Source of the DNA: Candidatus Woesearchaeota archaeon
GTDB taxonomy: Archaea; Nanobdellota; Nanobdellia; Woesearchaeales; UBA525
NCBI GenBank assembly: GCA_027371725.1
Contig: DAHXMN010000002.1
Coordinates: forward strand, 1-32,678
Length of the DNA stretch: 32,678 nt
Direction: 5' to 3'
The translations under genes and the position numbers were made by a program. The notes under the pieces are model-generated. The model was not told the origin of the DNA. It did not search any database and saw nothing but the letters and a program-made list of their open reading frames with translations. Shown piece by piece: positions 2,833 to 31,959 of this stretch (the first letter of the stretch is position 1; each line of letters opens with the position of its first letter).

Positions 2833-3255
2833 CTCCAAGTCAGATACATCTGTCCGAAAATCCTACATTTTTCTTGAATAATCTTTATATATGATGAGGT
2901 GTGATTAGTGCGTATGACGTGGAACGTCGACCCGAACGGCGACCTCGTCGAAGAGGACGAGGAGCTCGAGAAAGAAGATAAGCACTCATACCGAGAGTAT
3001 GATAGTTTCTGCGCTATGGGTCCCGTTCCGAGGAGAGTTCTCCGAGAAGAAACACGCCAGCAGAGAGCGTGCTGAACGAGTGCCGCCGCCGGCCTCAGGG
3101 CGAGGCGTTGCGGAAAGGGAAGCGGAGAGGCCAGGGGGACGCCCCATACGGGGATGGCCGTTGCCGGGAAAGAACATGCGATACGCCGAGCAGCCCGCGG
3201 CGGCACGAGCGGGTCTAACAAAAACTACAAAAAGAGAAGCCCAGAACCGGACAGC

Positions 3256-3666
3256 ATGGCCCGCGTCATGGTCTTCGGCAGCTTCGACCCGCTCCATGAG
3301 GGGCACCGGTCGCTCTTCCGCCAGGCGAAGCGGTACGGCGACGAGCTCGTCGTCGCGGTGGCGCGGGACGTGAACATCCGCAAGCTGAAAGGGCACGAGC
3401 CGCGGCAACCGGAGCGACAGCGGCTAGCGACGGTCGAGCGGGAAGGGTCCGTCGACCTCGCCATCCTCGGCGACGAGAAGGACTTCCTGAAAGTAATCGA
3501 GCGATACCTCCCGGAGACGATCGTCCTCGGCTACGACCAGGAGACGTTCACGGACGAGGAACTCCGTGAGAAGCTCGCGAAACGAGGACTCCATCCGGAG
3601 ATCAAGCGCGCAGTGGCGTTCCGGCCCGAGACGTACAAGAGCAGCAAAGTCGGGAAGAAAGAGTGA
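3256..3666 (+). CDS. ribL: cytidylyltransferase-fold FAD synthase, RibL-like
   Basis: GSFDPLHEGH (HxGH), DELVVAVARDVNIRKLKGHEP and TIVLGYDQETFTDEELREKLAKRGLHPEI are colinear with archaeal RibL as I recall it. The track ORF (3154) has a non-homologous R/G-rich extension. I chose ATG 3256, preceded by an A-rich TATA-like box at 3225-3234. Confidence 0.7.
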   Translation: MARVMVFGSFDPLHEGHRSLFRQAKRYGDELVVAVARDVNIRKLKGHEPRQPERQRLATVEREGSVDLAILGDEKDFLKVIERYLPETIVLGYDQETFTDEELREKLAKRGLHPEIKRAVAFRPETYKSSKVGKKE

Positions 3667-5567: not shown

Positions 5568-5793
5568 GGCGGACGGTGTCCGCGATGCCGTTTATAAAAA
5601 CTGGGTTGAAGCCGATCAAGCACGGCGTTCCCGCGCCGCGGCCGCAGCGACGGCCATCGCAGTCTTCCTCGACGGGGAACCGAGTCTCGTAGCGATCGAA
5701 GTTGACGCCGCCTCGCCGTCCGGGCGGCGGCTGCGGCGCTCTTTGCGTCGGGAAAGATGGAAGAGAGAAGATACTGATTAAGAGGAAGAAGAG

Positions 5794-5857
5794 AAAAAAA
5801 TGGCCTTCACGATGGTTTTCGGGGGGTTGGGGGGTGTGAGAACGGCATCGTGAAGGC
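5794..5857 (-). terminator. 12-bp perfect hairpin followed by T7 (intrinsic-terminator-like)
   Basis: GCCTTCACGATG at 5803-5814 pairs with CATCGTGAAGGC at 5846-5857. On the minus strand the hairpin is followed after 2 nt by T7 (5800-5794). Confidence 0.5.
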
Positions 5858-6047
5858 AGAGAAATCCTTTCGGAAGAAAGGAGCGTGAATCCCTGCTGGC
5901 CGTCCGAATGTTTTGAAAGATGTTAAGCGGGGCCGGTCATCACTGCACGTTACGCGCCCGTCGTCGGTACGTTGTCGTCGCTATGGGCGGTTCACTGTCG
6001 TCACTGTCGACCCCTTTGTCACCACCGGTGAACATGGAAAAAGCCGT

Positions 6048-7121
6048 TTAGCGGACGATCTCGATGCCGAGGTCGTCGCTGAGCTGCTGCCGGGCGACCG
6101 CGCGTTCCTTGGCGGACTGCTTGCCCAGGATCCACGGGCTCTTGACGCCGGTGACGATCGTCATGACGGTGATCTTGCCCTTCATGTTGTCGTCCACGCG
6201 CGCGCCCCAGATGACGTTCGCATCCTCGTCCATGGATTCGGTGACGAGTTCGCCGACGCGGTTGATCTCGTCCAGCGTCAGGTCGGGTCCGCCGCTGACA
6301 TGGATGATCGCGCCGCTCGCGCCCTCGTAGCTGATGTCGAGGAGCGGGTTGGAGAGCGCGCCCTTGACCGCTTCTTCGACGCGGTTGTTCGTGTCCGAGA
6401 CGCCGACGCCGATGGCCGCGACGCCGCCGTCCGTCATGATCGCCTTGACGTCCGCGTAGTCGAGGTTGACGAGCGAGGGCACGGCGATGATCTCGACGAT
6501 GCCCTTGATCATGGTCGCCACCAGCTCGTTCGCCACGGCGAAGGCCTGCTGCACGGGAAGGTTGCCCGCGATCTGGACCAGGCGGTTGTTGTCGATGACG
6601 ATGACGGTGTCGCTCACCTGCCGGAGGCGTTGGAGGCCGAATTCGGCCTTGTCGACGCGCGCGCGCTCGATCTTGAACGGCATCGTGACCGTGCCGATGA
6701 CGATGGAGCCAGTGTCCTTGGCGACCTGCGCGACGACCGGGGCAGCCCCTGTGCCGGTGCCGCCGCCCATGCCCGCGCAGACGAAGCACATGTCGCTGCC
6801 GCGGAGGTGCTCCTTCAGCTCCTGGATGGACTCCTGGGCCGCTTCCGCCCCCTTCTCCGGGAAGCCGCCGCAGCCGAGGCCGCGCGTGACGTCGCGGCCG
6901 ATCAGGAACTTGCGATCGGATTCGGTGATGTCGAGGTGCTGCTTGTCCGTGTTGCACGCGATGATCTCGGCACCCTTGATCCCCTTGTTGTAGAGCCAGT
7001 TGACCATGTTGTTGCCGGCGCCGCCGACCCCGATGACCTTGATATTGGCCTGTCCAACTTCAAGCTCTGGCGTTGCGTTCCTCTGGGGCTGCTGGGCAGC
7101 ACGGTTCACGATGAAGTCCAT
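6048..7121 (-). CDS. ftsZ: cell division protein FtsZ
   Basis: IKVIGVGGAGNN and the tubulin signature GMGGGTGTGAAPV. GAGGGGGAG SD lies 6 nt upstream of the ATG. A T5 run follows 5 nt after the TAA. Confidence 0.95.
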   Translation of the reverse strand: MDFIVNRAAQQPQRNATPELEVGQANIKVIGVGGAGNNMVNWLYNKGIKGAEIIACNTDKQHLDITESDRKFLIGRDVTRGLGCGGFPEKGAEAAQESIQELKEHLRGSDMCFVCAGMGGGTGTGAAPVVAQVAKDTGSIVIGTVTMPFKIERARVDKAEFGLQRLRQVSDTVIVIDNNRLVQIAGNLPVQQAFAVANELVATMIKGIVEIIAVPSLVNLDYADVKAIMTDGGVAAIGVGVSDTNNRVEEAVKGALSNPLLDISYEGASGAIIHVSGGPDLTLDEINRVGELVTESMDEDANVIWGARVDDNMKGKITVMTIVTGVKSPWILGKQSAKERAVARQQLSDDLGIEIVR

Positions 7122-7463
7122 TTTTCGCTCCCCCTCAATGTTTTTGCTGTCTCCTGTCGTCGGTCCAAGGTCGCGCGAGCACCCGGAGAGCGCCAGCTAG
7201 CTCGTAGCAGCGTCCCTGTCTAAAAGCGGCCTGCGGCGTCGCCGGGTCGCCTCGCCATTCCCCTGTCCGGACAGCCTTCCCAAGCAGACCAGACCGAAGA
7301 ATGTTTAGTTCTCGCCAAAACCTTTTTGTCATTTCTAGTCTTAGCTTATATATAAACCTTGTCGTTCTAAAAAATATATGTGCGGTATACTATACTAGAG
7401 AAAATATAATATGGAAAGGAATTCGTGCGACCGAGCGGGAAACAGCAGGAAGAGGAAAGACGA

Positions 7464-11271: not shown

Positions 11272-12327
11272 ATGGGCCTGTTCGACGAGGTTCTCGGCGC
11301 GGGGGAGTCGCTCTTCCGGAACGAGGACGCGCTGGAGTACGAGTTCCTGCCAAAACTCTTGCCGTTCCGCGAGAACGAGCAGCGCGAGCTGGCGCGGTGC
11401 GTCAGCCCCCTCTTCCAGGGCAGGAACGGGCGGAACGTCCTGATCCACGGCGCCCCGGGCATCGGGAAGAGCGCAGCCGCGAGATTCGTGCTCCGCGAGC
11501 TCGAGGAGAAGAGCGACGAGGTCGCGGTCGTCTACGTCAACTGCTGGCAGACGAACACGAGCTACAAGGTCTTCCTCGAGGTGTGCGACCAGCTCGGGTA
11601 CAAGTTCACGCAGAACAAGAACGGCACCGAGCTGATCAAGGTCATCGCGTCCATAGTCAACAAGAAGAGCGCGGTGATCGTCTTCGACGAGATCGACAAG
11701 GCGGAGGAGTTCGACTTCCTCTACTCGCTCATCGAAGAGATCTACAAGAAAGCCATCATCCTGATCACGAACTACAAGTCCTGGCTCATCGAGCTGGACG
11801 AGCGGATCAAGAGCCGGCTGACGCCGGAGCTGATCGAGTTCAAGCAGTACACGGACAAGGAGACCGCCGGGATCCTGAAGGAGCGGCAGCAGTACGCGTT
11901 CGTCCCCGGCGTCTGGGAGGAAGCGGCGTTCACGCTCGTCTGCCAGCGCGCAGCGGCGGCGAAGGACATCCGCACCGGGCTGTACCTGATGCGGCAGGCA
12001 GCGCTGAGAGCGGAGGACGCGGCCTCGAAGAAGGTGACCGAGGAGCACGTCAAGCGGGCGTTGTCCACGATGGACGAGTTCACGATCAAGAGCAGCGCCG
12101 ACCTCAACGACGAGGAGAAGTTCATCTACGAGGTCGTGAAGAAGCACGACGGGAAGAAGATCGGCGACCTGTACAACGCGTACAAGAAGGACGGCGGCCA
12201 AGCGTCGTATAAGACGTTCCAGCGGAAGATAGCGGCGCTCGACGAGGGCCGGTTCATCACGCTGGAGCGGAAGACGGGCGACGGCGGCAACACGACCATC
12301 GTCAACCGGAAGATCACGGAGTTCTAG
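11272..12327 (+). CDS. cdc6: Orc1/Cdc6 replication initiator (AAA+ with C-terminal winged helix)
   Basis: FRENEQRELA, Walker A HGAPGIGKSAAA, Walker B AVIVFDEIDK, and a C-terminal wH. TATA TATTTAAA at 11241-11248 lies 24 nt upstream of the ATG. Confidence 0.93.
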   Translation: MGLFDEVLGAGESLFRNEDALEYEFLPKLLPFRENEQRELARCVSPLFQGRNGRNVLIHGAPGIGKSAAARFVLRELEEKSDEVAVVYVNCWQTNTSYKVFLEVCDQLGYKFTQNKNGTELIKVIASIVNKKSAVIVFDEIDKAEEFDFLYSLIEEIYKKAIILITNYKSWLIELDERIKSRLTPELIEFKQYTDKETAGILKERQQYAFVPGVWEEAAFTLVCQRAAAAKDIRTGLYLMRQAALRAEDAASKKVTEEHVKRALSTMDEFTIKSSADLNDEEKFIYEVVKKHDGKKIGDLYNAYKKDGGQASYKTFQRKIAALDEGRFITLERKTGDGGNTTIVNRKITEF

Positions 12328-12587
12328 ATCGCGGGGCGCTCGTTCGGCCGGCGCTGCGGAACATCTCTTCTCCTCCGCCCGGAGGCCTTGACGAGCGCGC
12401 GCAATCATGGCGTCCGCGCCATACTCTCGCCAGGATCTCGTTCCGAGACGGCGCCGCGGCGAACGTCCAGAGCCATACGATGGACACGGGAACTGGACGA
12501 GGGAACGAAGCGGCTACGGGGTGAGCGGTGCAGGAACGAAGCGACTGCGTCCTCCCGGAGCGAGAGCCGGCATCCACGAGAGAGAAG

Positions 12588-12620
12588 AAAAAGGGAAGGG
12601 AAAAGAGGTTAAGGAAAGAC
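12588..12620 (-). terminator. CT-rich T4/T5 terminator after the pilin gene
   Basis: The minus strand reads TAA gcagtctttccttaacctcTTTTcccttcccTTTTTc directly after the stop. Confidence 0.55.
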
Positions 12621-12623
12621 TGC

Positions 12624-13103
12624 TTACTGCTCCACCGAAGAGGTGATGCTGCCGGACGCGGTGTGCGTCACGTCCTCGCCGTTCTTCGTGTAGATGACAT
12701 TCACGTTCGCCTTGAACTTGTCGCCGACATTGGCCGCGGCGGTGTTCGTGCAGCTGAAGGTGAAGACCTGCTTCTGGCCGTTCGCGAGGGAGATCTGCGT
12801 GGTGTTCGCGATCTGGCAATCGACGGCGCTGCCGAGGTTCGTGGTGTTGACGTCGGTCTCGTTGATGGTGATCTGGTCGCCGATGTTGTTGATGATGCCG
12901 AACGTCAGCGTCGCGGGCATGCCCGCGGAGACCTTGTACTCGCCCGCGCTGATGCCGCCGGTCATCGTGAAGCTGCTCGGCAGGAACTTGCTCGGGCTGA
13001 GGATGCCGAAGTAGGCGAGGGCGCCGATCGCCGCGAGGACGACGAGGATGGCCCAGCCGTACGTCATCAGGAACTCCATTGCCGCTTGACCCTTTCTCCG
13101 CAT
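12624..13103 (-). CDS. archaeal type IV pilin (class III signal peptide), candidate major pilin
   Basis: MRRKG|QAAMEFLMTYGWAILVVLAAIGALAYF is followed by a beta-rich domain with 2 Cys and several N-x-S/T sequons. GGTGAGGTGA SD lies 5 nt upstream. It has its own TATA (13174-13181) and a CT-rich T-run terminator. Confidence 0.85.
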   Translation of the reverse strand: MRRKGQAAMEFLMTYGWAILVVLAAIGALAYFGILSPSKFLPSSFTMTGGISAGEYKVSAGMPATLTFGIINNIGDQITINETDVNTTNLGSAVDCQIANTTQISLANGQKQVFTFSCTNTAAANVGDKFKANVNVIYTKNGEDVTHTASGSITSSVEQ

Positions 13104-15755: not shown

Positions 15756-17399
15756 CTACGGCGCCGGCCGCGGGGGCGCCGCGACGCCCTTCGGCTCGCC
15801 CTGCTCGCTCTCCAGGAACGGCTGGTCCGCCTTGATGAAGCGGAACAGGTTCTCCTTGTCCGTGTAATACTCTGCGATGACGCGGCCGACGGCGTCGACG
15901 GTGAAGATGCTGTGCTTCACCAGGTAGTCGATGACGCGGCGCTTCTCCGCGATCTCCGCGGCCACGTCCTTGTCGGTGAGGCCGGTGTAGAGCTTCAGCG
16001 TCTGGAGGAAGCTCCTGCTCTTGGCGACCTGGACGAGCCGGTCCTTCTTCGGGTCGTACTGGAGGATGACATTGAAGCCCGCGTTCGGGAGCGTCTCCGC
16101 AATCTGGAAGGTGCGGCGCTGGCCGCTACGCCGGTTACGGAACTGGACGATGATGAGCGAGATCGCCGGCAGCATGACCTTCGGCACCTCGATCGGCGGA
16201 TTGGTGAGACGCTCGATCGCCTCCTCCGCGGTGTTGGCGTGGAACGTCGCGTAGACGGAGTGGCCGGTGTGGATCGCTTCGAAGAGCGTCTCCGCCTCCC
16301 TCTTGCGGCGGACCTCGCCGACGATGATGCGGTCCGGCCTCATACGGAGGCTGTTGACGAGGAGGTCGCCCATGGATATCTCCCCCTTGCCCTCGGCGTT
16401 CGGCAGCCGCGTGTTGAGCGGCACCCAGTGGAGGAACCGCGGCAGTTGGATCTCGCGCGTGTCCTCAATGGAGAGGACGCGCTGGTTCGGCGGGAAGAAG
16501 TTCGCGAAGCAGTTGAGCGCGCTCGTCTTGCCGGAAGCGGTGCCGCCCGCGATGATGGCGCTCATCTCGTAGTGCATCGCCATCCAAATCCACGCGGCCG
16601 CCTCGCTGCTGATCGTGCCGTACTTGACGAGCCGGGTGATCGTCCACGGGTCGCGGCTGAACTTGCGGATGGTGATCGTGTTGCCCGCGGTGCTGATCGG
16701 CATCAGGGTCGCGTTGACGCGGTCCCCCTCGTTCAGGTGGGCGTCGAGCAACGGCTCCAAGACGCTGATCTGCCGGCCGACCTTGCGTCCGATGAGCGCG
16801 GCGTAGTGCCTGATCTGCTCCTCGTCCTTGAGGAAGACCGTCGTCTTGAGCCAGCCGTGCTTCTTGTGGTAGACCCAGACCGGCTCGTCCGACTGGTTGA
16901 TGACGATCTCCTCGAGCTGCGCGTCGTCCATGAGGAGCTCGATGTTGCCGAGGCCGAGGGAACGCGCGATGAGGTAGCTGGTGAGGAAGCCGCTCGTCTC
17001 CTCGTCGGCGTCCGGGAAGTGCTTGCGGATCAGGTCGGCGATCGTGTCGGCGAAGACGCCCTCGACCTGGCCGGTCTTCTTCGCGTCGAGGATGTCCACG
17101 ACGCCGAGGCTCACCTGCTTGATCAGCTCCTGGCGGATCTTCTCGAGCAGGAATTCGGTCGTCTTGGAGATGGAGCTGATCCGCACCTCGTAGATCGGGA
17201 CGAACTCGCCCTTCACCTTCTGGACGGTGATGATGATGGGGATGTCCTTCGACTTGTACTCGTACTGGTCGATGACCGCCTCCTTGACGGCGGCCTTCGG
17301 GTTCCGAGAATCACGGGAAGAAGCCTTGCGGACCGCTTTGCGGGGACGAGAAGAGTTCGCCTTCTTCCGCTTCACAGTAGACTTCGCGCCGCGTGCCAA
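15756..17399 (-). CDS. type IV filament assembly ATPase (FlaI/TadA/VirB11 superfamily)
   Basis: Walker A AGGTASGKTS, Asp box VLSIEDTREIQLP, Walker B PDRIIVGEVR, His box HTGHSVYATFHANT. TTG start is preceded by GAGGTGA at 7 nt. Basic ~40-aa N-terminal tail. Confidence 0.9.
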   Translation of the reverse strand: MARGAKSTVKRKKANSSRPRKAVRKASSRDSRNPKAAVKEAVIDQYEYKSKDIPIIITVQKVKGEFVPIYEVRISSISKTTEFLLEKIRQELIKQVSLGVVDILDAKKTGQVEGVFADTIADLIRKHFPDADEETSGFLTSYLIARSLGLGNIELLMDDAQLEEIVINQSDEPVWVYHKKHGWLKTTVFLKDEEQIRHYAALIGRKVGRQISVLEPLLDAHLNEGDRVNATLMPISTAGNTITIRKFSRDPWTITRLVKYGTISSEAAAWIWMAMHYEMSAIIAGGTASGKTSALNCFANFFPPNQRVLSIEDTREIQLPRFLHWVPLNTRLPNAEGKGEISMGDLLVNSLRMRPDRIIVGEVRRKREAETLFEAIHTGHSVYATFHANTAEEAIERLTNPPIEVPKVMLPAISLIIVQFRNRRSGQRRTFQIAETLPNAGFNVILQYDPKKDRLVQVAKSRSFLQTLKLYTGLTDKDVAAEIAEKRRVIDYLVKHSIFTVDAVGRVIAEYYTDKENLFRFIKADQPFLESEQGEPKGVAAPPRPAP

Positions 17400-17437
17400 C
17401 CGACCCTCACCTCTCTGACCAGCCCCGGGAGAGGCTG

Positions 17438-17509
17438 TTTATAAACGTTTCGACAGCTTGCGCGAAGGAAAAACGCGGCGCGAAGAAAGAGCGACAAAAC
17501 GTTTATAAT
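17438..17509. promoter_or_regulatory. divergent promoters sharing an inverted 12-nt AAACGTTTATAA module
   Basis: TTATAAACGTTT at 17439-17450 is the exact reverse complement of AAACGTTTATAA at 17497-17508. One faces the ATPase operon and the other faces the phosphatase remnant. Confidence 0.5.
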
Positions 17510-17524
17510 CGTGCGACACAGTCA

Positions 17525-17826
17525 ATGGCCTCGGGGCGGCGAGGAACACGTATTCTGTCCACGGACCGACGATGGATAACGAACAGGGCCTCGCCGCGGG
17601 CTGGGCGCCGGGAAAACTCCCGGAAACGGGAAGGAAACGGGCACGAGAACTGGGACGAACCGTCTCTCACGAGGTCTTCGATGCGGTCTTCTGCTCCGAC
17701 CTGAAGAGGACGCTCGAATCCGCGGAGCCCGGTTCCGCGGATAAATATAGAATCATCCAAGATAAGAGATTGAGGGGAATGCGATTAAGGGATTGTGAGC
17801 GTTCCGTGCGACGGATGATTTCCTGA
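17525..17826 (+). pseudogene. decayed histidine phosphatase (phosphoglycerate-mutase family) remnant
   Basis: HGPTMDNEQGLAAGWAPGKLPETGRKRARELG...FDAVFCSDLKRTLESAE matches the N-terminal third of the family. The catalytic Arg of RHG is Val. The plausible N-terminus (MASGRRGTRIL, ATG 17525) is in another frame. Conserved G/W/G residues of the next motif read RGMRLRDCER. The frame stops at 17826, well short of full length. Confidence 0.45.
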
Positions 17827-17887
17827 TATCGCTCCAAGGCAACGCTGGAGAAAAGCGCGATATTTGAGGGCGAAGACGGTAGAACGC

Positions 17888-19042
17888 TCACTCCTTGCTG
17901 CCGATGAGGTCGCGGAGCTTGCCCAGCTCATCCTGGAAGAGCGAACGCTTCTTATCGTACTCCTTGTAGCCCTTCTCGAGCTCACCCATCTGCTTCTTGA
18001 TGTCCGTCTCCTTGCTGAGCAGGTTGAACGCGATCGCCTTCTTCTTCAGGCCGTCGAGCTCGTGCGCCATCTCCGCCTTGTGCTGCTCGAGGCCGTTGAG
18101 CAGCTTCTCCGTCTCCATCCGCTTCTTGAAGAACGTGTCGAACTTGTCCACGATGCCTTGGGCCTGTTTCTCATAGGTGGTGATCGTGCCCTTCCGCTCG
18201 CGGACCTTCTCGAGGATGGAGTCCTGCACCTTGAGTATCTTCTCGCCGTGCTCCTTGGACGCCTTGATGAGCGGGTCGAGCTCCTCCTCCTTCTTGCGTT
18301 GGATGTCGTGCTGGATCGTGTCCGCGATCTCGTGGAGCCGTGCGAGCCGGTCCTCCTCGTCGGTGATGGACTTCCCCGCGTTGGCGATCTCGCCGTCGAT
18401 GGCGTCGACCACCTCTTTCAGCGCGGCCAGCCGTTTCTGGAGCGAGGACTCCTTCTCCTCCATCGTCTTTGTTTCCTCGCGTTCCTGGGTGAGCTTCTCC
18501 TCCTCGCCCTTGATCTCGTGGAGGAGCTTCTCGTACCGCTTCTCTTCCGCGTAGAGCTTGCGGTGGACGTCGTCCACCATCTTCTCGTAGTCGACCTTCT
18601 GCTGGATGATGTCCTGGTCGATGGACTGCTTGAGGGACTCGTAGTGCTTCAGCTCGTCGAGCTCGTGCTTCACTTGGTCGATCTCGTCCCCGATGTCGCC
18701 CTTGAGCGAATTGTAGGCGCGCTTGATGTCCTCGAAGCCGGACGTCTCCTTCTCGAGCTGCTTGAGCGTCGTGTCGACCTTCCGGACGAACGCCTCTTTC
18801 TTCTGCTCGTACTCCTTGGATTTCTTCTCGACCTCGCGCTTCGTCAGCTTCTTCTCCACCAGGTAGGTCTTGCTGAGGCTGTACTCGATGCCGATAAGGC
18901 CTTCCTCGTCGAGGAACTCCGCCCACTCGCGCACCACGTCCTTGGAGACGCCGAGCTCCTTCGAGGCGTCCTCGAGCGCGATCTTCTTCCGTTCGGAGAC
19001 GATCTCCACGAGCTTGTCCACGCCGGTCTCGATCTTCGCCAT
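17888..19042 (-). CDS. winged-helix N-terminal domain + ~320-aa coiled-coil protein
   Basis: MAKIETGVDKLVEIVSERKKIALEDASKELGVSKDVVREWAEFLDEEGLIGIEY is wH-like. The remainder is continuous E/K/L/D-rich and heptad-like. TATA 19065-19072 lies 23 nt upstream of ATG 19042. The track ORF start 19141 crosses the promoter. Confidence 0.75.
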   Translation of the reverse strand: MAKIETGVDKLVEIVSERKKIALEDASKELGVSKDVVREWAEFLDEEGLIGIEYSLSKTYLVEKKLTKREVEKKSKEYEQKKEAFVRKVDTTLKQLEKETSGFEDIKRAYNSLKGDIGDEIDQVKHELDELKHYESLKQSIDQDIIQQKVDYEKMVDDVHRKLYAEEKRYEKLLHEIKGEEEKLTQEREETKTMEEKESSLQKRLAALKEVVDAIDGEIANAGKSITDEEDRLARLHEIADTIQHDIQRKKEEELDPLIKASKEHGEKILKVQDSILEKVRERKGTITTYEKQAQGIVDKFDTFFKKRMETEKLLNGLEQHKAEMAHELDGLKKKAIAFNLLSKETDIKKQMGELEKGYKEYDKKRSLFQDELGKLRDLIGSKE

Positions 19043-29277: not shown

Positions 29278-29538
29278 TCACTCCGCCGCTTTCCGTTTCT
29301 GGACGAAGGACGGGACGTTCGCCGCGGGCCGTTTCTCGCTCGCGGCCTTCTGCGGCACGAGTTCGGCGCGGCGCGCCTCCTCGGGGTGGAGCTCCTTGTA
29401 CTGCCGCCGGTAGTCCGCGTACCGGTCCTCAGGGCTGTATTTCGGCGGCCGCGGCGGCACCCGCCGGGAGCCGCAGGAGCACGCCTCCCCGAGGCCGTAG
29501 CTGCCGCACGCGGGGCAACGGAGTATCTGGCTCGCCAT
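29278..29538 (-). CDS. nop10: H/ACA RNP protein Nop10 with ~30-aa C-terminal extension
   Basis: LRCPACGSYGLGEACSCGSRRVPPRPPKYSPEDRYADYRR is the Nop10 Zn ribbon plus PP(K/R)FSPED motif. Sits in the conserved position after eif2a. The track ORF start 29619 overlaps eif2a and was rejected. Confidence 0.85.
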   Translation of the reverse strand: MASQILRCPACGSYGLGEACSCGSRRVPPRPPKYSPEDRYADYRRQYKELHPEEARRAELVPQKAASEKRPAANVPSFVQKRKAAE

Positions 29539-29587
29539 GGGCGCGCAAGAACCGGGGAACGTTAATAAATCTTCTGCCGGAAGGGAA

Positions 29588-30364
29588 TCACTCCCTCGCG
29601 AACGCGACCGCGCCACCATCGGTCCGCTTGACGATCGCTTCCGCGGCGGCGACCGCCCGGTCGAGGACCGCTTCGGCCTCCTTGTACTCCTCGGCAGTCA
29701 CCTCGACCTTGTAGCCGCCGCTGCCGAGATAACGGATCAAGACGCGCTTGTCGGTCTGCTCCGCGGCGGCGAGCGCCGCCTTCACCTTGTCGACGCCGTC
29801 CTCCGCGTACGTGGAGAGGGAGAGCGTGCCGCTGATCGTGACGGACTTCGGCTTGATCTTGTCGACGACGCGCGCGATGAGGGGCTCGAGGTATTCCGTC
29901 GGGATGGCGAGCGAGCGGAGGTCGCCTTCGCCGTCGACGTGCTCCTGGAACGCCATGTGGATGTACTCGTACTGCTCGAGGATCGGCTTCGCGATGGCGT
30001 CGTACAGCTTCTTCGGCTCGATCTTGAGCTCGGCGGCCATGTTCTCGATGATCTTCTCGGCCTTCTGCTCCTGCTTGATCAGCATGTTCTTCTCGCGGCG
30101 CTGGTTCTCATTGGCGCGGCGGAGGGAGAGGTCGATGTGGCCGCGCTCCTCGTTGATGCGGAGGACCTTGCAGACGATCTTCTTGTTCTCGACGACATAG
30201 TCGCGGATGTTCCTGATGCGGCCGGGCGCGACCTCGGAGATGTGGATCATGCCGCTCTTGCCGTACTCGTCGAGCACGCAGAACACGGAGTTGTACTGGA
30301 CGCCGGTCACGGTGCACATGACCAGCTCGTTCTCCTCCGGGTAGCCGTCCTTGTGGTAAAACAT
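29588..30364 (-). CDS. eif2a: translation initiation factor aIF2 alpha
   Basis: S1 domain ELVMCTVTGVQYNSVFCVLDEYGKSGMIHISEVAPGRIRNIRDY and RGHIDLSLRR. TATA 30388-30395 lies 24 nt upstream of the ATG. Confidence 0.92.
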   Translation of the reverse strand: MFYHKDGYPEENELVMCTVTGVQYNSVFCVLDEYGKSGMIHISEVAPGRIRNIRDYVVENKKIVCKVLRINEERGHIDLSLRRANENQRREKNMLIKQEQKAEKIIENMAAELKIEPKKLYDAIAKPILEQYEYIHMAFQEHVDGEGDLRSLAIPTEYLEPLIARVVDKIKPKSVTISGTLSLSTYAEDGVDKVKAALAAAEQTDKRVLIRYLGSGGYKVEVTAEEYKEAEAVLDRAVAAAEAIVKRTDGGAVAFARE

Positions 30365-30387
30365 GCCTCCGGGGCAACCGGCCGTGC

Positions 30388-30395
30388 TTTATATA
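30388..30395 (-). promoter_or_regulatory. TATA box of eif2a-nop10
   Basis: TATATAAA on the minus strand, 24 nt upstream of ATG 30364. Confidence 0.6.
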
Positions 30396-30453
30396 GTTTC
30401 CGAGAGAGAAACGAGGGAAACAAGGATTTTTTCAGTCGTATCAGCGTCTTCAG

Positions 30454-30578
30454 CAGCATCGTCGCCTTGGCACGAAACCCGGGCGCGAAGATGGTCGAGC
30501 GTTTTTGCGAGACCATGATCCTGAGCGCCCGACGAAACCTCGGACCGGAGGGAGATTGGCTAGGCCGCGACGATGCTG
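30454..30578. ncRNA. structured element A (125 nt), paralogue of element B; candidate novel ncRNA or structured repeat
   Basis: 12-bp closing stem CAGCATCGTCGC (30454-30465) pairs with GCGACGATGCTG (30567-30578). Inner stem CGGGCGC (30480-30486) pairs with GCGCCCG (30525-30531), flanked by GAA and UGA. Third stem ATGGTC/GACCAT. Shares blocks with element B. Confidence 0.4.
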
Positions 30579-30585
30579 TGCAGGG

Positions 30586-30672
30586 AAAAAAACGAAGAAG
30601 AAGAAAATGATGCGAAGAAGAACGGAAGAGGAAGAAGCGAAGAAGAGAGAGAAACGAGAAGAAAGGAGAAGT
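30586..30672 (-). terminator. long CT-rich tract ending in T7 after rps27e
   Basis: On the minus strand a pyrimidine-rich stretch starts at the stop and ends in T7 (30592-30586). Confidence 0.55.
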
Positions 30673-30673
30673 C

Positions 30674-30853
30674 CTACTCGAGGACTTCGAGGGCGCGCGC
30701 GACGACCTTCGTCTTGCCGCCGCTCGGCTCGGCGAGGACCTCGCCGCAGACGAGGCACTTGACCGTGGTGGCGGTCTTGCCGAAGACGATCTGCTCGTTC
30801 TTGCACTTGTTGCAGCGCAGCTTCAGGAACTTGCTCGTGGGATTGTTCGCCAT
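30674..30853 (-). CDS. rps27e: 30S ribosomal protein S27e (59 aa; below the ORF-track length cutoff)
   Basis: Hand translation of the minus strand gives MANNPTSKFLKLRCNKCKNEQIVFGKTATTVKCLVCGEVLAEPSGGKTKVVARALEVLE*. C4 Zn ribbon. GGAGGA SD lies 7 nt upstream. Confidence 0.9.
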   Translation of the reverse strand: MANNPTSKFLKLRCNKCKNEQIVFGKTATTVKCLVCGEVLAEPSGGKTKVVARALEVLE

Positions 30854-30900
30854 GATGACATCCTCCGTGGAACGGGATGCCCTCGAGGAACAGGGGGGCT

Positions 30901-30908
30901 TTTATAAG
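30901..30908. promoter_or_regulatory. near-palindromic TATA box (TTTATAAG) usable in both directions
   Basis: On the minus strand it lies 48 nt upstream of the rps27e ATG (leader with GGAGGA SD). On the plus strand it lies 20-27 nt upstream of the first base of structured element B (30928). Confidence 0.5.
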
Positions 30909-30927
30909 GGTTGTGGTCGGGGGAAGA

Positions 30928-31100
30928 GCGTCATCGCCGCCTTGGCATGATGGCCGGGCGCGAACATCGAACATGCGGGAGCGACGAGTTATACGAGTCG
31001 GCCAGGAACGTAGCGACTGGCCCTGAGCGACCGCATAATCGTGAGCGCCCGACAATCGTCCCGGGCTGAGCGAGGGCAGCTTAGGCCGCGGCGATGATGC
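30928..31100 (+). ncRNA. structured element B (173 nt), paralogue of element A; candidate novel ncRNA
   Basis: 13-bp closing stem GCGTCATCGCCGC (30928-30940) pairs with GCGGCGATGATGC (31088-31100), with one G-U that is only valid on the plus strand. The same inner stem CGGGCGC (30955-30961) pairs with GCGCCCG (31045-31051). A plus-strand TATA lies 20-27 nt upstream. Confidence 0.4.
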
Positions 31101-31165
31101 GAGGAACCGGGAGAAGAGAATGACGGACGCAAACGTTTTTAACCTCCGAAGACGAGGAAGGCGTC

Positions 31166-31462
31166 ATGGACGGGATGAAGGCGCGGCTGTTCGCGCTCGC
31201 CGCAGTCGCGGTGTTCGGGCTCTTCCTCCTCAAGGGGGTGACGACGGGCTTCGTGGTGAGCGAGAGCTGCTGCACGCCGCAGACGCAGGGGTGCGTGGCG
31301 GAGAAGGCGTGCCCGTTCCTCCAGCAACCAGCGGTCGTCGACGACAGCAGCGTCGTCGGGTTCCTGATCCTCCTGACTGCCGGGGCGCTCGTCGTCGGCG
31401 AGGTCGCGTGGCGGCGGCAGAGAAGGAAAGGGAAAGAAGGGATGACGATGCGCGTCGTCTAG
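31166..31462 (+). CDS. hypothetical small membrane protein (98 aa; two hydrophobic helices, Cys-rich loop)
   Basis: GC3-rich codons. MKARLFALAAVAVFGLFLL, SESCCTPQTQGCVAEKACPF, VVGFLILLTAGALVVG, then RRQRRKGK. A T-rich TATA-like box lies about 25 nt upstream. Its TAG shares the palindrome CTAG with the convergent rpl44e stop. Confidence 0.55.
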   Translation: MDGMKARLFALAAVAVFGLFLLKGVTTGFVVSESCCTPQTQGCVAEKACPFLQQPAVVDDSSVVGFLILLTAGALVVGEVAWRRQRRKGKEGMTMRVV

Positions 31463-31770
31463 ACGAACTCGACCTTCTTCGCGCGGAGGCCGCCTTTCTG
31501 GACGGACATCTTCTTGCACTCGGTGCACTGGTAGCGGAAGTCGGTCTTCTTGGAGAGCTTCTTGCCGGTCATCTTCGGCTTGGGCGGCTTGGAGTACTTG
31601 CCGAGATTGCCTGAGCCGCGGCGCTCGCCCCTGAGGCGGACGCGCACCTTGCTGCCGATGCTGAGCGGGTGGCTCTGGTTCCTGCCGCGGCTCTTCGACT
31701 GCGTGACCTTGTGCAGCGTGTGCTTGTTGCACCGCGGACAGTGCCGGTTCATCTGCTTCGGGACCTTCAT
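31459..31770 (-). CDS. rpl44e: 50S ribosomal protein L44e
   Basis: MKVPKQMNRHCPRCNKHTLHKV and YQCTECKK give the Zn ribbon. TATA 31794-31801 lies 24 nt upstream of ATG 31770, so the track start 31794 was rejected. Confidence 0.9.
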   Translation of the reverse strand: MKVPKQMNRHCPRCNKHTLHKVTQSKSRGRNQSHPLSIGSKVRVRLRGERRGSGNLGKYSKPPKPKMTGKKLSKKTDFRYQCTECKKMSVQKGGLRAKKVEFV

Positions 31771-31793
31771 GGCAGCGCTGGAACAGGGAGCCA

Positions 31794-31801
31794 TTTAAAA
31801 A
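31794..31801 (-). promoter_or_regulatory. TATA box of rpl44e
   Basis: TTTTTAAA on the minus strand, 24 nt upstream of ATG 31770. Confidence 0.6.
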
Positions 31802-31959
31802 CCTTACTGTTGGACGGGGGATGGCGTCCGAGCAGAAACGCGGAAACGGAAGGGAGAGGGGAAGAGAAAGGGACGAAAGGAGGAAAGAAGAAAGGGGAAG
31901 AAAGGATGAGCGGAATAAGCAGGAAATTACCATATAGAAGGAAATTTGTGCAAAGCAAC

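Follow-up and report, generated by a model that had tools for sequence, protein, structure and literature searches.

Two segments that share sequence blocks and long inverted repeats lie on either side of the ribosomal protein gene rps27e in a 32,678-nucleotide (nt) stretch of DNA from a Candidatus Woesearchaeota archaeon (GenBank assembly GCA_027371725.1, contig DAHXMN010000002.1; hereafter the window), and they raise the question of whether they serve that gene or belong to something more general. The initial annotation, made from the letters of the window alone, treated them as two paralogous structured elements, A and B, bracketing rps27e. We find that their homology is real, and that A and B are two of at least 11 copies of a dispersed family of structured intergenic elements limited to some Woesearchaeota, in which base pairs are kept by compensatory substitution and sequence is not; the framing as a pair bracketing rps27e fails, as copies occur elsewhere, beside unrelated genes.

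A family of elements with compensated stems

Element A is a complete copy of 127 nt (30453-30579, plus strand), and element B is a complete copy of 173 nt (30928-31100, plus strand) with a branched insertion of ~60 nt within its arm P2. Alignment confirms the three blocks that had been described as common to both, GCCTTGGCAYGA-NNN-CCGGGCGCGAA, ATCNTGAGCGCCCGAC, and TAGGCCGCGRCGATG, the second of which occurs in the window in A and B only. The description of the stems was also accurate: the closing stem of A is perfect over 12 bp (30454-30465 with 30567-30578), or 13 bp if a terminal G-U is counted, and that of B has 13 bp with one G-U. Pair lists show that from A to B a T:A pair becomes C:G, a G:C pair becomes T:A, and an A:T pair becomes G:T, and the 7-bp inner stem CGGGCGC/GCGCCCG, flanked by GAA on its 5' side and UGA on its 3' side, is identical in the two elements. 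The nested fold proposed for both is reproduced, with plus-strand folding z-scores of -5.7 (A) and -5.0 (B) against 200 dinucleotide shuffles, none of which folds as well as either element; folding of the minus strand is weaker (z = -3.7 and -3.1). By folding, the plus strand is the better RNA strand for both elements, as had been suggested, A and B being 7-11 kcal/mol more stable on the strand as given, and the G-U pair cited in its favor is present in B.

In A, the terminal helix P1 (30453-30465 with 30567-30579) leads through a CUU bulge (30466-30468) to a short helix P1b, GGC/GCC (30469-30471 with 30564-30566). The P2 arm comprises P2a, CGGGCGC/GCGCCCG (30480-30486 with 30525-30531), GAAG (30487-30490) opposite CUGA (30521-30524), P2b, AUGGUC/GACCAU (30491-30496 with 30511-30516), and a GAUC bulge (30517-30520), and a small hairpin P3 pairs CCUC with GAGG around the loop GGACCG (30538-30541 with 30548-30551). 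The corresponding parts of B are P1 (30928-30940 with 31088-31100), the CUU bulge (30941-30943), P1b (30944-30946 with 31085-31087), P2a (30955-30961 with 31045-31051), GAAC (30962-30965) opposite GUGA (31041-31044), and P2b, AUGCGG/CCGCAU (30973-30978 with 31031-31036).

We built a covariance model (R1) from A, a copy called D, and the trimmed cores of B and of a further copy, C, and used it for all scans, searching every related locus with filters off. The further homologues for which the initial annotation had recommended a search were found in the window and in related genomes, and they covary. At least 11 members are significant (copies A-J and L, of which C and D were also used in training), with E values from 1e-28 to 4e-3; the scores of A (135.8 bits, E = 1e-28) and B (54.7 bits, E = 2.7e-10) are training-set scores, both elements being part of the model. 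The window holds three copies, the third and more diverged being F (12345-12463, minus strand; 49.2 bits, E = 4.8e-9). Copies C, E, G, H, and I all fall within 20.6 kb of contig JACWAN010000018.1 (L016), from the Woesearchaeota metagenome-assembled genome A_NAN_12, where we located E at 16161-16284 (plus strand; 101.6 bits, E = 7e-21), G as a match at 3363-3493 (plus strand; 41.5 bits, E = 2.5e-7), H at 7087-7237 (minus strand; 28.7 bits, E = 2e-4), and I at 12989-13100 (minus strand; 25.9 bits, E = 9e-4). The possibility that G is a decayed half-copy was ruled out: the complete element spans 3244-3491 and carries a 105-nt insertion in P2. Copy D lies in a 3-kb contig (L018), and copies J (L002:2079-2188, plus strand; 22.3 bits, E = 4e-3) and L (L022:8289-8401, plus strand; 34 bits, E = 8e-6) lie in contigs of Joint Genome Institute (JGI) sample 3300013232.

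Three candidates stay borderline: M (L023:6560-6670, plus strand; 16.7 bits, E = 0.06), K (L002:2496-2628; 13.7 bits, E = 0.5), and a structured element at L023:1600-1770. The last of these (contig DASH01000042.1) has a 16-bp closing stem, GACGACAGTACCGTCC / GGACGGTACTGTCGTC, and stands between two TATA-like boxes; its G/C-rich interior resembles element K, and it may be a distant relative of the family. The R1 scan of loci L003, L004, L021, and L024 (~59 kb in total) returned no copy. An exact-pattern scan of the GTDB representative genomes with the 5' block gave one true match, copy C, together with three bacterial chance matches; the same block found only chance matches in JGI metagenome contigs, where the second block did not accompany it. 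Three scans of viral contigs gave either zero matches or chance ones that the covariance model rejected, and blastn against phage and plasmid collections gave no match to the elements.

The copies measure 105-250 nt and share a three-way-junction architecture. P1 is a terminal helix of 10-16 bp with the loose consensus CATCGYCGCC/GGCGRCGATG, followed, always on the 5' strand, by a 3-nt pyrimidine-rich bulge (CUU, UCU, or CCU) and by P1b, which is GGC/GCC or longer. Distant copies confirm P1b and show that it covaries: it is GGAG/CUCC in I, CGGAAC/GUUCCG after a UCU bulge in F, GGCGAG/CUCGCC in J, and GGCGGCC/GGCCGCC in M. Next come the junction motif GGCAYGA and the P2 arm, and then the P3 hairpin CYC-GGACCG-GRG, followed by GGAGR. 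Among the unpaired motifs, conservation is strongest in the GGCAYGA junction, in the P3 loop GGACCG, and in the GGAGGGAG that follows, and the 13-mer GGACCGGAGGGAG is exact in seven copies; a likeness of this 13-mer to helix 8 of the signal recognition particle (SRP) RNA was rejected, since P3 covariation favors the CYC/GRG pairing. In the main subfamily, P2 consists of CGGGCGC, a tandem G·A (G·A, A·G), an A-U pair, a covarying pair S:S', a 4-nt 3' bulge, and AUGG/CCAU, and in copy E its lower part, CGGCGGC/GCCGCCG, is a compensated version of CGGGCGC/GCGCCCG. P2 is the variable arm and tolerates inserted hairpins: B and G have large insertions in it, and in H, I, and L its place is taken by a simple arm of another type, while copy C has two extra hairpins in the junction. 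The apical loops of A and G are nearly identical, as are the P2 arms of I and L.

Pairing in these elements exceeds every control. In the 10-copy model alignment, 88.9% of stem cells are paired, versus 29-52% with the partners slid by 1-3 columns, and 28 of the 37 pairs show double-sided changes, counts that are somewhat inflated by the model-fitted alignment and that come from related copies, which are not independent samples. None of 500 shuffles reaches the observed covariation measures. RNAalifold on an unfitted MAFFT alignment recovers the same fold as the manual structure, so that unfitted and fitted alignments agree, and P1 and P2b are unambiguous helices. Chance is excluded as the source of the similarity and fold of A and B. 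The G+C content is 58-69% and short inverted repeats are common in the window, and we had to consider that stems of this kind might simply arise in GC-rich sequence; given folding z-scores near -5, E values down to 7e-21 for copies outside the training set, and covariation beyond all controls, we attach practically no credence to this explanation. Small-protein coding was also ruled out: the elements conserve no reading frame, and the frame left open by A and C meets a stop codon in D, 7 codons in.

Copies C and D allow the same element to be compared at one locus in two species. In L016, copy C sits between marC (minus strand) and ORF217 (plus strand), followed by dus. The sole homologue of ORF217 that we found (55% identical) led to the contig holding D, which belongs to the same European Nucleotide Archive (ENA) sample as a contig identical to the window. 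D occupies the same position between marC and ORF217-dus, and the flanking proteins are 88% (Dus) and 55% (ORF217) identical. The element blocks are ~90% identical and both promoters are kept, whereas the adjoining spacers cannot be aligned, and P2b differs between C and D by compensatory changes. Retention of the element while the spacer next to it decayed points to a fold constrained at individual loci, not only in a master copy. In L024, the marC-dus spacer is 75 nt long and has no element.

Placement of the copies and the rps27e locus

All family copies lie in spacers between called genes except L, which formally falls within the 5' end of a leuS-like open reading frame (ORF), a gene call that we take to be over-extended. 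The 1,160-aa tRNA-synthetase ORF called there (L022:4946-8428, minus strand) crosses the element, and a TATA box and an ATG near L022 ~8240 suggest that the true synthetase start comes before it; elements of this family can cause over-extended or spurious gene calls. According to the gene table, five of the eight L016 spacers longer than 150 nt carry a copy, and in the loci examined the density is about one copy per 4-10 kb, with most of the longer spacers filled. The neighboring genes are unrelated to one another (cdc6, dus, marC, leuS, L44e, and metabolic genes), and both orientations relative to them occur, mixed even within 13 kb of L016. Copies H, I, and J follow a gene of the same sense, in a position like that of a 3' untranslated region; E lies between two same-sense genes, after the T-tract of the upstream one; F lies between convergent genes, directly downstream of a cdc6/orc1 gene (11272-12327, plus strand; Pfam Cdc6_lid and AAA_16); B, C, D, L, and M are flanked by divergent TATA boxes; and A and G are antisense to both neighbors. 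The cdc6/orc1 gene and copy F might mark a region near a replication origin.

At the locus that prompted the question, rps27e occupies 30674-30853 (minus strand; from the ORF list, with Pfam Ribosomal_S27e on an identical protein) between A and B, in company with genes for eIF2-alpha (29588-30364, minus strand), Nop10, a small conserved membrane protein (31166-31462, plus strand), and L44e (31459-31794, minus strand). The named closest homologues of the eIF2-alpha are annotated as Woesearchaeota or Nanoarchaeota. The window contig has an identical twin in ENA assembly ERZ27233560 (L001), and relatives keep the L44e-S27e-eIF2-alpha-Nop10 cluster without the elements. The closest relative (L002/L020; eIF2-alpha 80% identical) has a real gene of 288 aa in the place of A, and L002 has at the place of B a 125-nt element with a 14-bp closing stem and almost no sequence similarity; L002 also has copy J, at a place where no spacer exists in the window. 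The 288-aa gene (L002:3041-3907, minus strand in that locus) lies between the S27e and eIF2-alpha genes and on the opposite strand, and its presence at the site of A marks the S27e/eIF2-alpha junction as a hot spot for change. In L003 and L021 (eIF2-alpha ~70-72% identical), S27e abuts eIF2-alpha, there is no element at either place, and the divergent S27e and membrane-protein promoters are ~30 nt apart; in L004, S27e is not at this locus.

These comparisons bear directly on the reading in which A and B are a locus-specific small RNA (sRNA) or regulator pair tied to rps27e, bound by L7Ae at a kink-turn (K-turn) and, for B, transcribed from its own TATA promoter. A special tie to rps27e is contradicted by copies beside many unrelated genes and by relatives with 70-80% identical eIF2-alpha that lack A, B, or both; with homologues at unrelated genes and relatives free of the element, it is not an rps27e-specific regulator. 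The TATA box that had been offered as a promoter of B (30900-30907, minus strand) lies outside the element; it precedes the rps27e ATG (30853) by 47-54 nt, and a GGAGGA Shine-Dalgarno sequence stands between the two. This box, TTTATAAGGGTTRYGGTG, is conserved in L002 and L003 and in all relatives that keep S27e at this locus, with the same flank, GGGTTRYGGTG; its conservation where the element is absent and its spacing to the ATG identify it as the promoter of rps27e, and it is no evidence for a transcript of B. In A, B, and E, A/T-rich boxes do precede P1 by 22-28 nt.

The K-turn part of this reading fares no better. By the definition of a K-turn (a canonical stem, a 3-nt bulge, and tandem sheared G·A / A·G pairs), A and E fit, with a GAA bulge followed by GA, and they can form a C/D-like K-turn (GAA bulge, G·A, A·G, U·U, G-C). 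In B, C, D, and G, the required G is replaced by C, so that they read CA at the place of the K-turn G·A, and F, H, I, and L are without the motif altogether. The residue after GAA and the residue before UGA are G:C in A and E and C:G in B, C, D, and G; this S:S' covariation points to a continuous helix with tandem G·A and not to a conserved K-turn. Of the earlier proposal, the tandem G·A pairs at GAA/UGA stand for the main subfamily, and the K-turn that it allowed for does not. An alternative K-turn register, with the bulge on the 3' strand, was rejected because it requires a non-canonical 2x6 loop. Overall, we regard a regulator pair dedicated to rps27e as very improbable.

Relation to known systems and possible function

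The elements could not be assigned to any known RNA class. The expectation that they are not tRNA, 5S, SRP, RNase P, or another known family was borne out by Rfam and ARAGORN, neither of which matched them. Rfam 15 at gathering score gave no match in the whole window, a search at E <= 10 over 30300-31250 gave only an 11-bit low-complexity match, Rfam on copies C, D, E, G, H, and I gave nothing, and ARAGORN found no tRNA. The best box C-like sequences, AAGAUGG in A (5/7) and AACAUCG in B (3/7), depart from RUGAUGA, a D-like box CUGA is present in A and E only (GUGA elsewhere), and no Rfam C/D family matches. The 3 nt after P1 (GCA, GAG, CGG, CGA, GGA, ACG, and GCA) contain no conserved ACA, and the would-be H/ACA pocket has a 3' side of ~40 nt that holds a hairpin. 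We also rejected a split or intron-containing tRNA, 5S RNA, and minimal RNase P (no T-loop or CR motif and no Rfam signal), a hammerhead-like CUGA...GAAA in A (which lacks G8/A9 and is not kept in B, C, or D), and a bulge-helix-bulge splicing motif at P1-bulge-P1b (the central helix is 3-7 bp and there is no second bulge). A literature search on repeats and non-coding RNAs of Woesearchaeota and DPANN archaea found nothing relevant, and measured against Rfam 15 and the literature searched, the family is new.

Several known systems share some of its traits. Archaeal box C/D sRNAs are abundant, lie in spacers in either orientation, often lack a canonical promoter of their own, and have terminal pairing and tandem G·A; our elements are likewise scattered in spacers in either orientation, with terminal pairing and tandem G·A, but they have no C/D/C'/D' boxes or conserved K-turn, are 2-4x longer, and have variable parts that are base-paired instead of single-stranded guides. 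Integron attC sites conserve structure over sequence, are recognized as a folded single strand, and flank genes. The elements resemble them in conserving structure rather than sequence and in flanking genes, and differ in that their ends are CATCG...CGATG, not RYYYAAC...GTTRRRY, their orientations are mixed, and their neighbors are housekeeping genes with their own promoters or TATA boxes, with no array and no integrase. The ERIC/IRU, Correia/NEMIS, and Rickettsia palindromic elements and archaeal miniature inverted-repeat transposable elements (MITEs) are dispersed intergenic repeats of 100-170 bp, often co-transcribed and folding as RNA, with conserved terminal repeats, usually target-site duplications, and many near-identical copies. 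Our family is also dispersed, intergenic, and bounded by terminal inverted repeats; unlike them, its terminal helix varies by compensation, no duplications are seen, and its copies are 45-78% identical.

Bacterial repetitive extragenic palindromes (REPs) and the REP-based BIME and REPIN repeats are high-copy extragenic palindromes whose stems vary between families, and many REPs are thought to act as RNA hairpins in transcripts, in stabilization or termination (PMC3733652). A REP/REPIN has a single 20-40 bp hairpin bearing GTAG or CGTC as an unpaired tag; inverted dimers are common, and the genome holds a RAYT gene, although CGTC-type REPs have no known transposase (PMC3733652). The elements are comparable in being multi-copy, extragenic, palindromic, and placed between genes, but they are archaeal, span 105-250 nt, and have a three-way junction with conserved loops and neither unpaired tag nor dimers. 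Size and fold thus both differ, and CGTC occurs in the elements only inside paired P1.

Our preferred reading, which we put at a probability of about 0.5, is that the element is an RNA-level, protein-bound module with a general role. That pairing rather than sequence is selected argues that it works as a folded single strand. The acting form would most probably be RNA of the given strand, made by read-through from a neighboring gene or started at the A/T-rich boxes that several copies carry upstream of P1, at a distance of 17-32 nt, and it could be held as a stable protein-bound module through P1 and the conserved junction and loops. Its role would then be a general one, such as protection of transcript ends, processing or insulation, or a shared protein-binding scaffold, and not rps27e regulation, comparable to the roles of REP/ERIC-type elements in bacteria or of the abundant C/D sRNAs in archaea. 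To judge from the sequences, expression of the elements is plausible. Tandem G·A, the one-sided bulge, and G-U pairs weakly favor the strand as written: G-U outnumbers A·C in the stems by 12 to 7, itself a weak preference, and P1 of copy I has three G-U pairs.

A number of observations weigh against this reading. Five of the 11 copies fold equally well or better on the opposite strand, folding energy clearly favors the given strand for A, B, I, and J only, and the strand asymmetry is weak overall. Orientation to tandem neighbor genes is mixed (E, H, and I sense; A and G antisense) and only about half of the copies have an A/T-rich box ahead of P1 (at about -17 to -32), so that expression of every copy is not assured. 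The T5 run already reported in A is present (30502-30506), and the apical loop of P2 has a T5-T6 run in both A and G, which could act as an archaeal terminator on the given strand. The reservation attached above to the pair counts belongs here too, no partner protein or target was identified for the elements, and RNA, rather than single-stranded DNA, is the form that we infer.

DNA-level function is the alternative in two forms. The elements might be non-autonomous mobile DNA (MITE-, REPIN-, or IS200/IS605-derived), with the fold recognized as single-stranded DNA by a transposase or HUH nuclease and selfish copies accumulating in the only free DNA of a compact genome. Such an origin would account for a multi-copy family restricted to spacers and to a lineage, for presence or absence that varies among close relatives (L003, L021, L002, and L024), for the occurrence of both orientations, and for subfamilies common to different genomes (A with G; I with L). 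The copies end in inverted repeats that share a loose consensus, and, like MITEs, they are small and non-coding: P1 gives a terminal inverted repeat of 10-16 bp, and no ORF is conserved. Yet P1 varies by compensatory change, and sequence conservation is lowest in the terminal repeats and highest in the internal loops, whereas a MITE would have its terminal repeats conserved. Many copies that are identical and bear target-site duplications had been named as the signature of a MITE; we find neither, with no target-site duplications, direct repeats, or common flanking tetranucleotide beside the 11 copies, pairwise identities of 45-78%, no near-identical pair, and every copy structurally intact, and the lack of near-identical copies means that there is no sign of recent activity. 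The C/D element was kept in place while the neighboring spacer decayed, a multi-branched fold that takes up hairpins at permissive sites is characteristic of RNAs and not of transposon ends, and no transposase appears in ~166 kb of related sequence, judged by Pfam labels of called genes only. We consider mobile DNA rather unlikely as the explanation.

The other form holds that the elements act as double-stranded DNA palindromes, as cruciforms or protein-binding sites that relieve or insulate supercoiling and transcription between close promoters and terminators. It draws on the seven copies (B, C, D, K, L, M, and the L023:1600-1770 element) placed exactly between two divergent TATA boxes, on others between a T-tract terminator and the next promoter, and on the many copies with similar folding energy on both strands. 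A cruciform, however, does not need a three-way junction with covarying side arms, and the elements keep strand-specific features (the 3-nt bulge always on the same strand, tandem G·A, and G-U) and conserved, asymmetric unpaired motifs, which together make the palindrome explanation improbable.

The most far-reaching version of the RNA reading is tentative, and we offer it as a possibility to which we lean less than to the RNA module itself: the elements may be a new, abundant three-way-junction RNA class of the Woesearchaeota lineage, with a dedicated protein on GGACCG / GGAGGGAG and the CUU bulge and a genome-wide role (for example at transcript ends or in promoter insulation), forming a DPANN-specific ribonucleoprotein (RNP) comparable in abundance to C/D sRNPs. 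To our knowledge, almost nothing is known of the non-coding RNA or repeats of the small, packed DPANN genomes. The family would be one of two things, an abundant RNA/RNP class that is new or a persistent structured repeat of a kind new to archaea. Through it one can approach the question of how reduced archaeal genomes hold promoters and terminators apart, and in either case the covariance model and motifs are a concrete, searchable tool for annotating DPANN genomes that explains spurious ORF calls over elements.

Other features of the window and related contigs

The pyrimidine-rich 3' tail of rps27e (30581-30672, minus strand; read from the sequence), which includes a T7 run, is probably the rps27e terminator and separates the gene from A; a comparable purine/pyrimidine-rich tract follows the gene adjoining copy G in L016 and follows rps27e in L002. 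Long purine-rich (GAA/GGA) plus-strand tracts come after several genes of the window (30581-30672, 5745-5800, 12560-12620, and 31840-31930), pyrimidine-rich on the strand of the adjacent minus-strand genes, and the same is seen in L002 and L016; these tracts probably mark archaeal 3' ends or terminators. The Nop10 ORF of the window (29278-29619, minus strand) has 113 aa, as against 86 aa from gene callers on the identical contig and 51-73 aa in relatives, and the long form is probably an N-terminal over-extension.

L016 contains a reverse-transcriptase gene, RVT_1 (17432-18604, minus strand), preceded by an Rfam RT-16 motif (18721-18889, minus strand; 61 bits, above gathering) and by an AAC-rich stretch that looks like the template repeat of a diversity-generating retroelement (DGR) (region 17432-18900). 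A link between our elements and this DGR-type reverse transcriptase was rejected, the upstream RNA being the separate RT-16 motif, and the two appear unrelated. In L004 (JBMXOK010000033.1), the sequence GGACCGGACGGTG occurs three times with a 66-nt period (5830-5974) inside a 1.2-kb stretch without called genes, and could be a CRISPR array or a tandem repeat. Two further palindromic sites occur in the window: a perfect 12-bp hairpin, GCCTTCACGATG / CATCGTGAAGGC, that closes a G/T-rich loop of 31 nt (5803-5857, in the 5623-5913 spacer), which the family model does not match, and nested perfect inverted repeats at 17382-17508, CTTCGCGCCGCGT/ACGCGGCGCGAAG (13 bp) and TTATAAACGTTT/AAACGTTTATAA (12 bp, TATA-like), in a spacer of ~400 nt without a long ORF.

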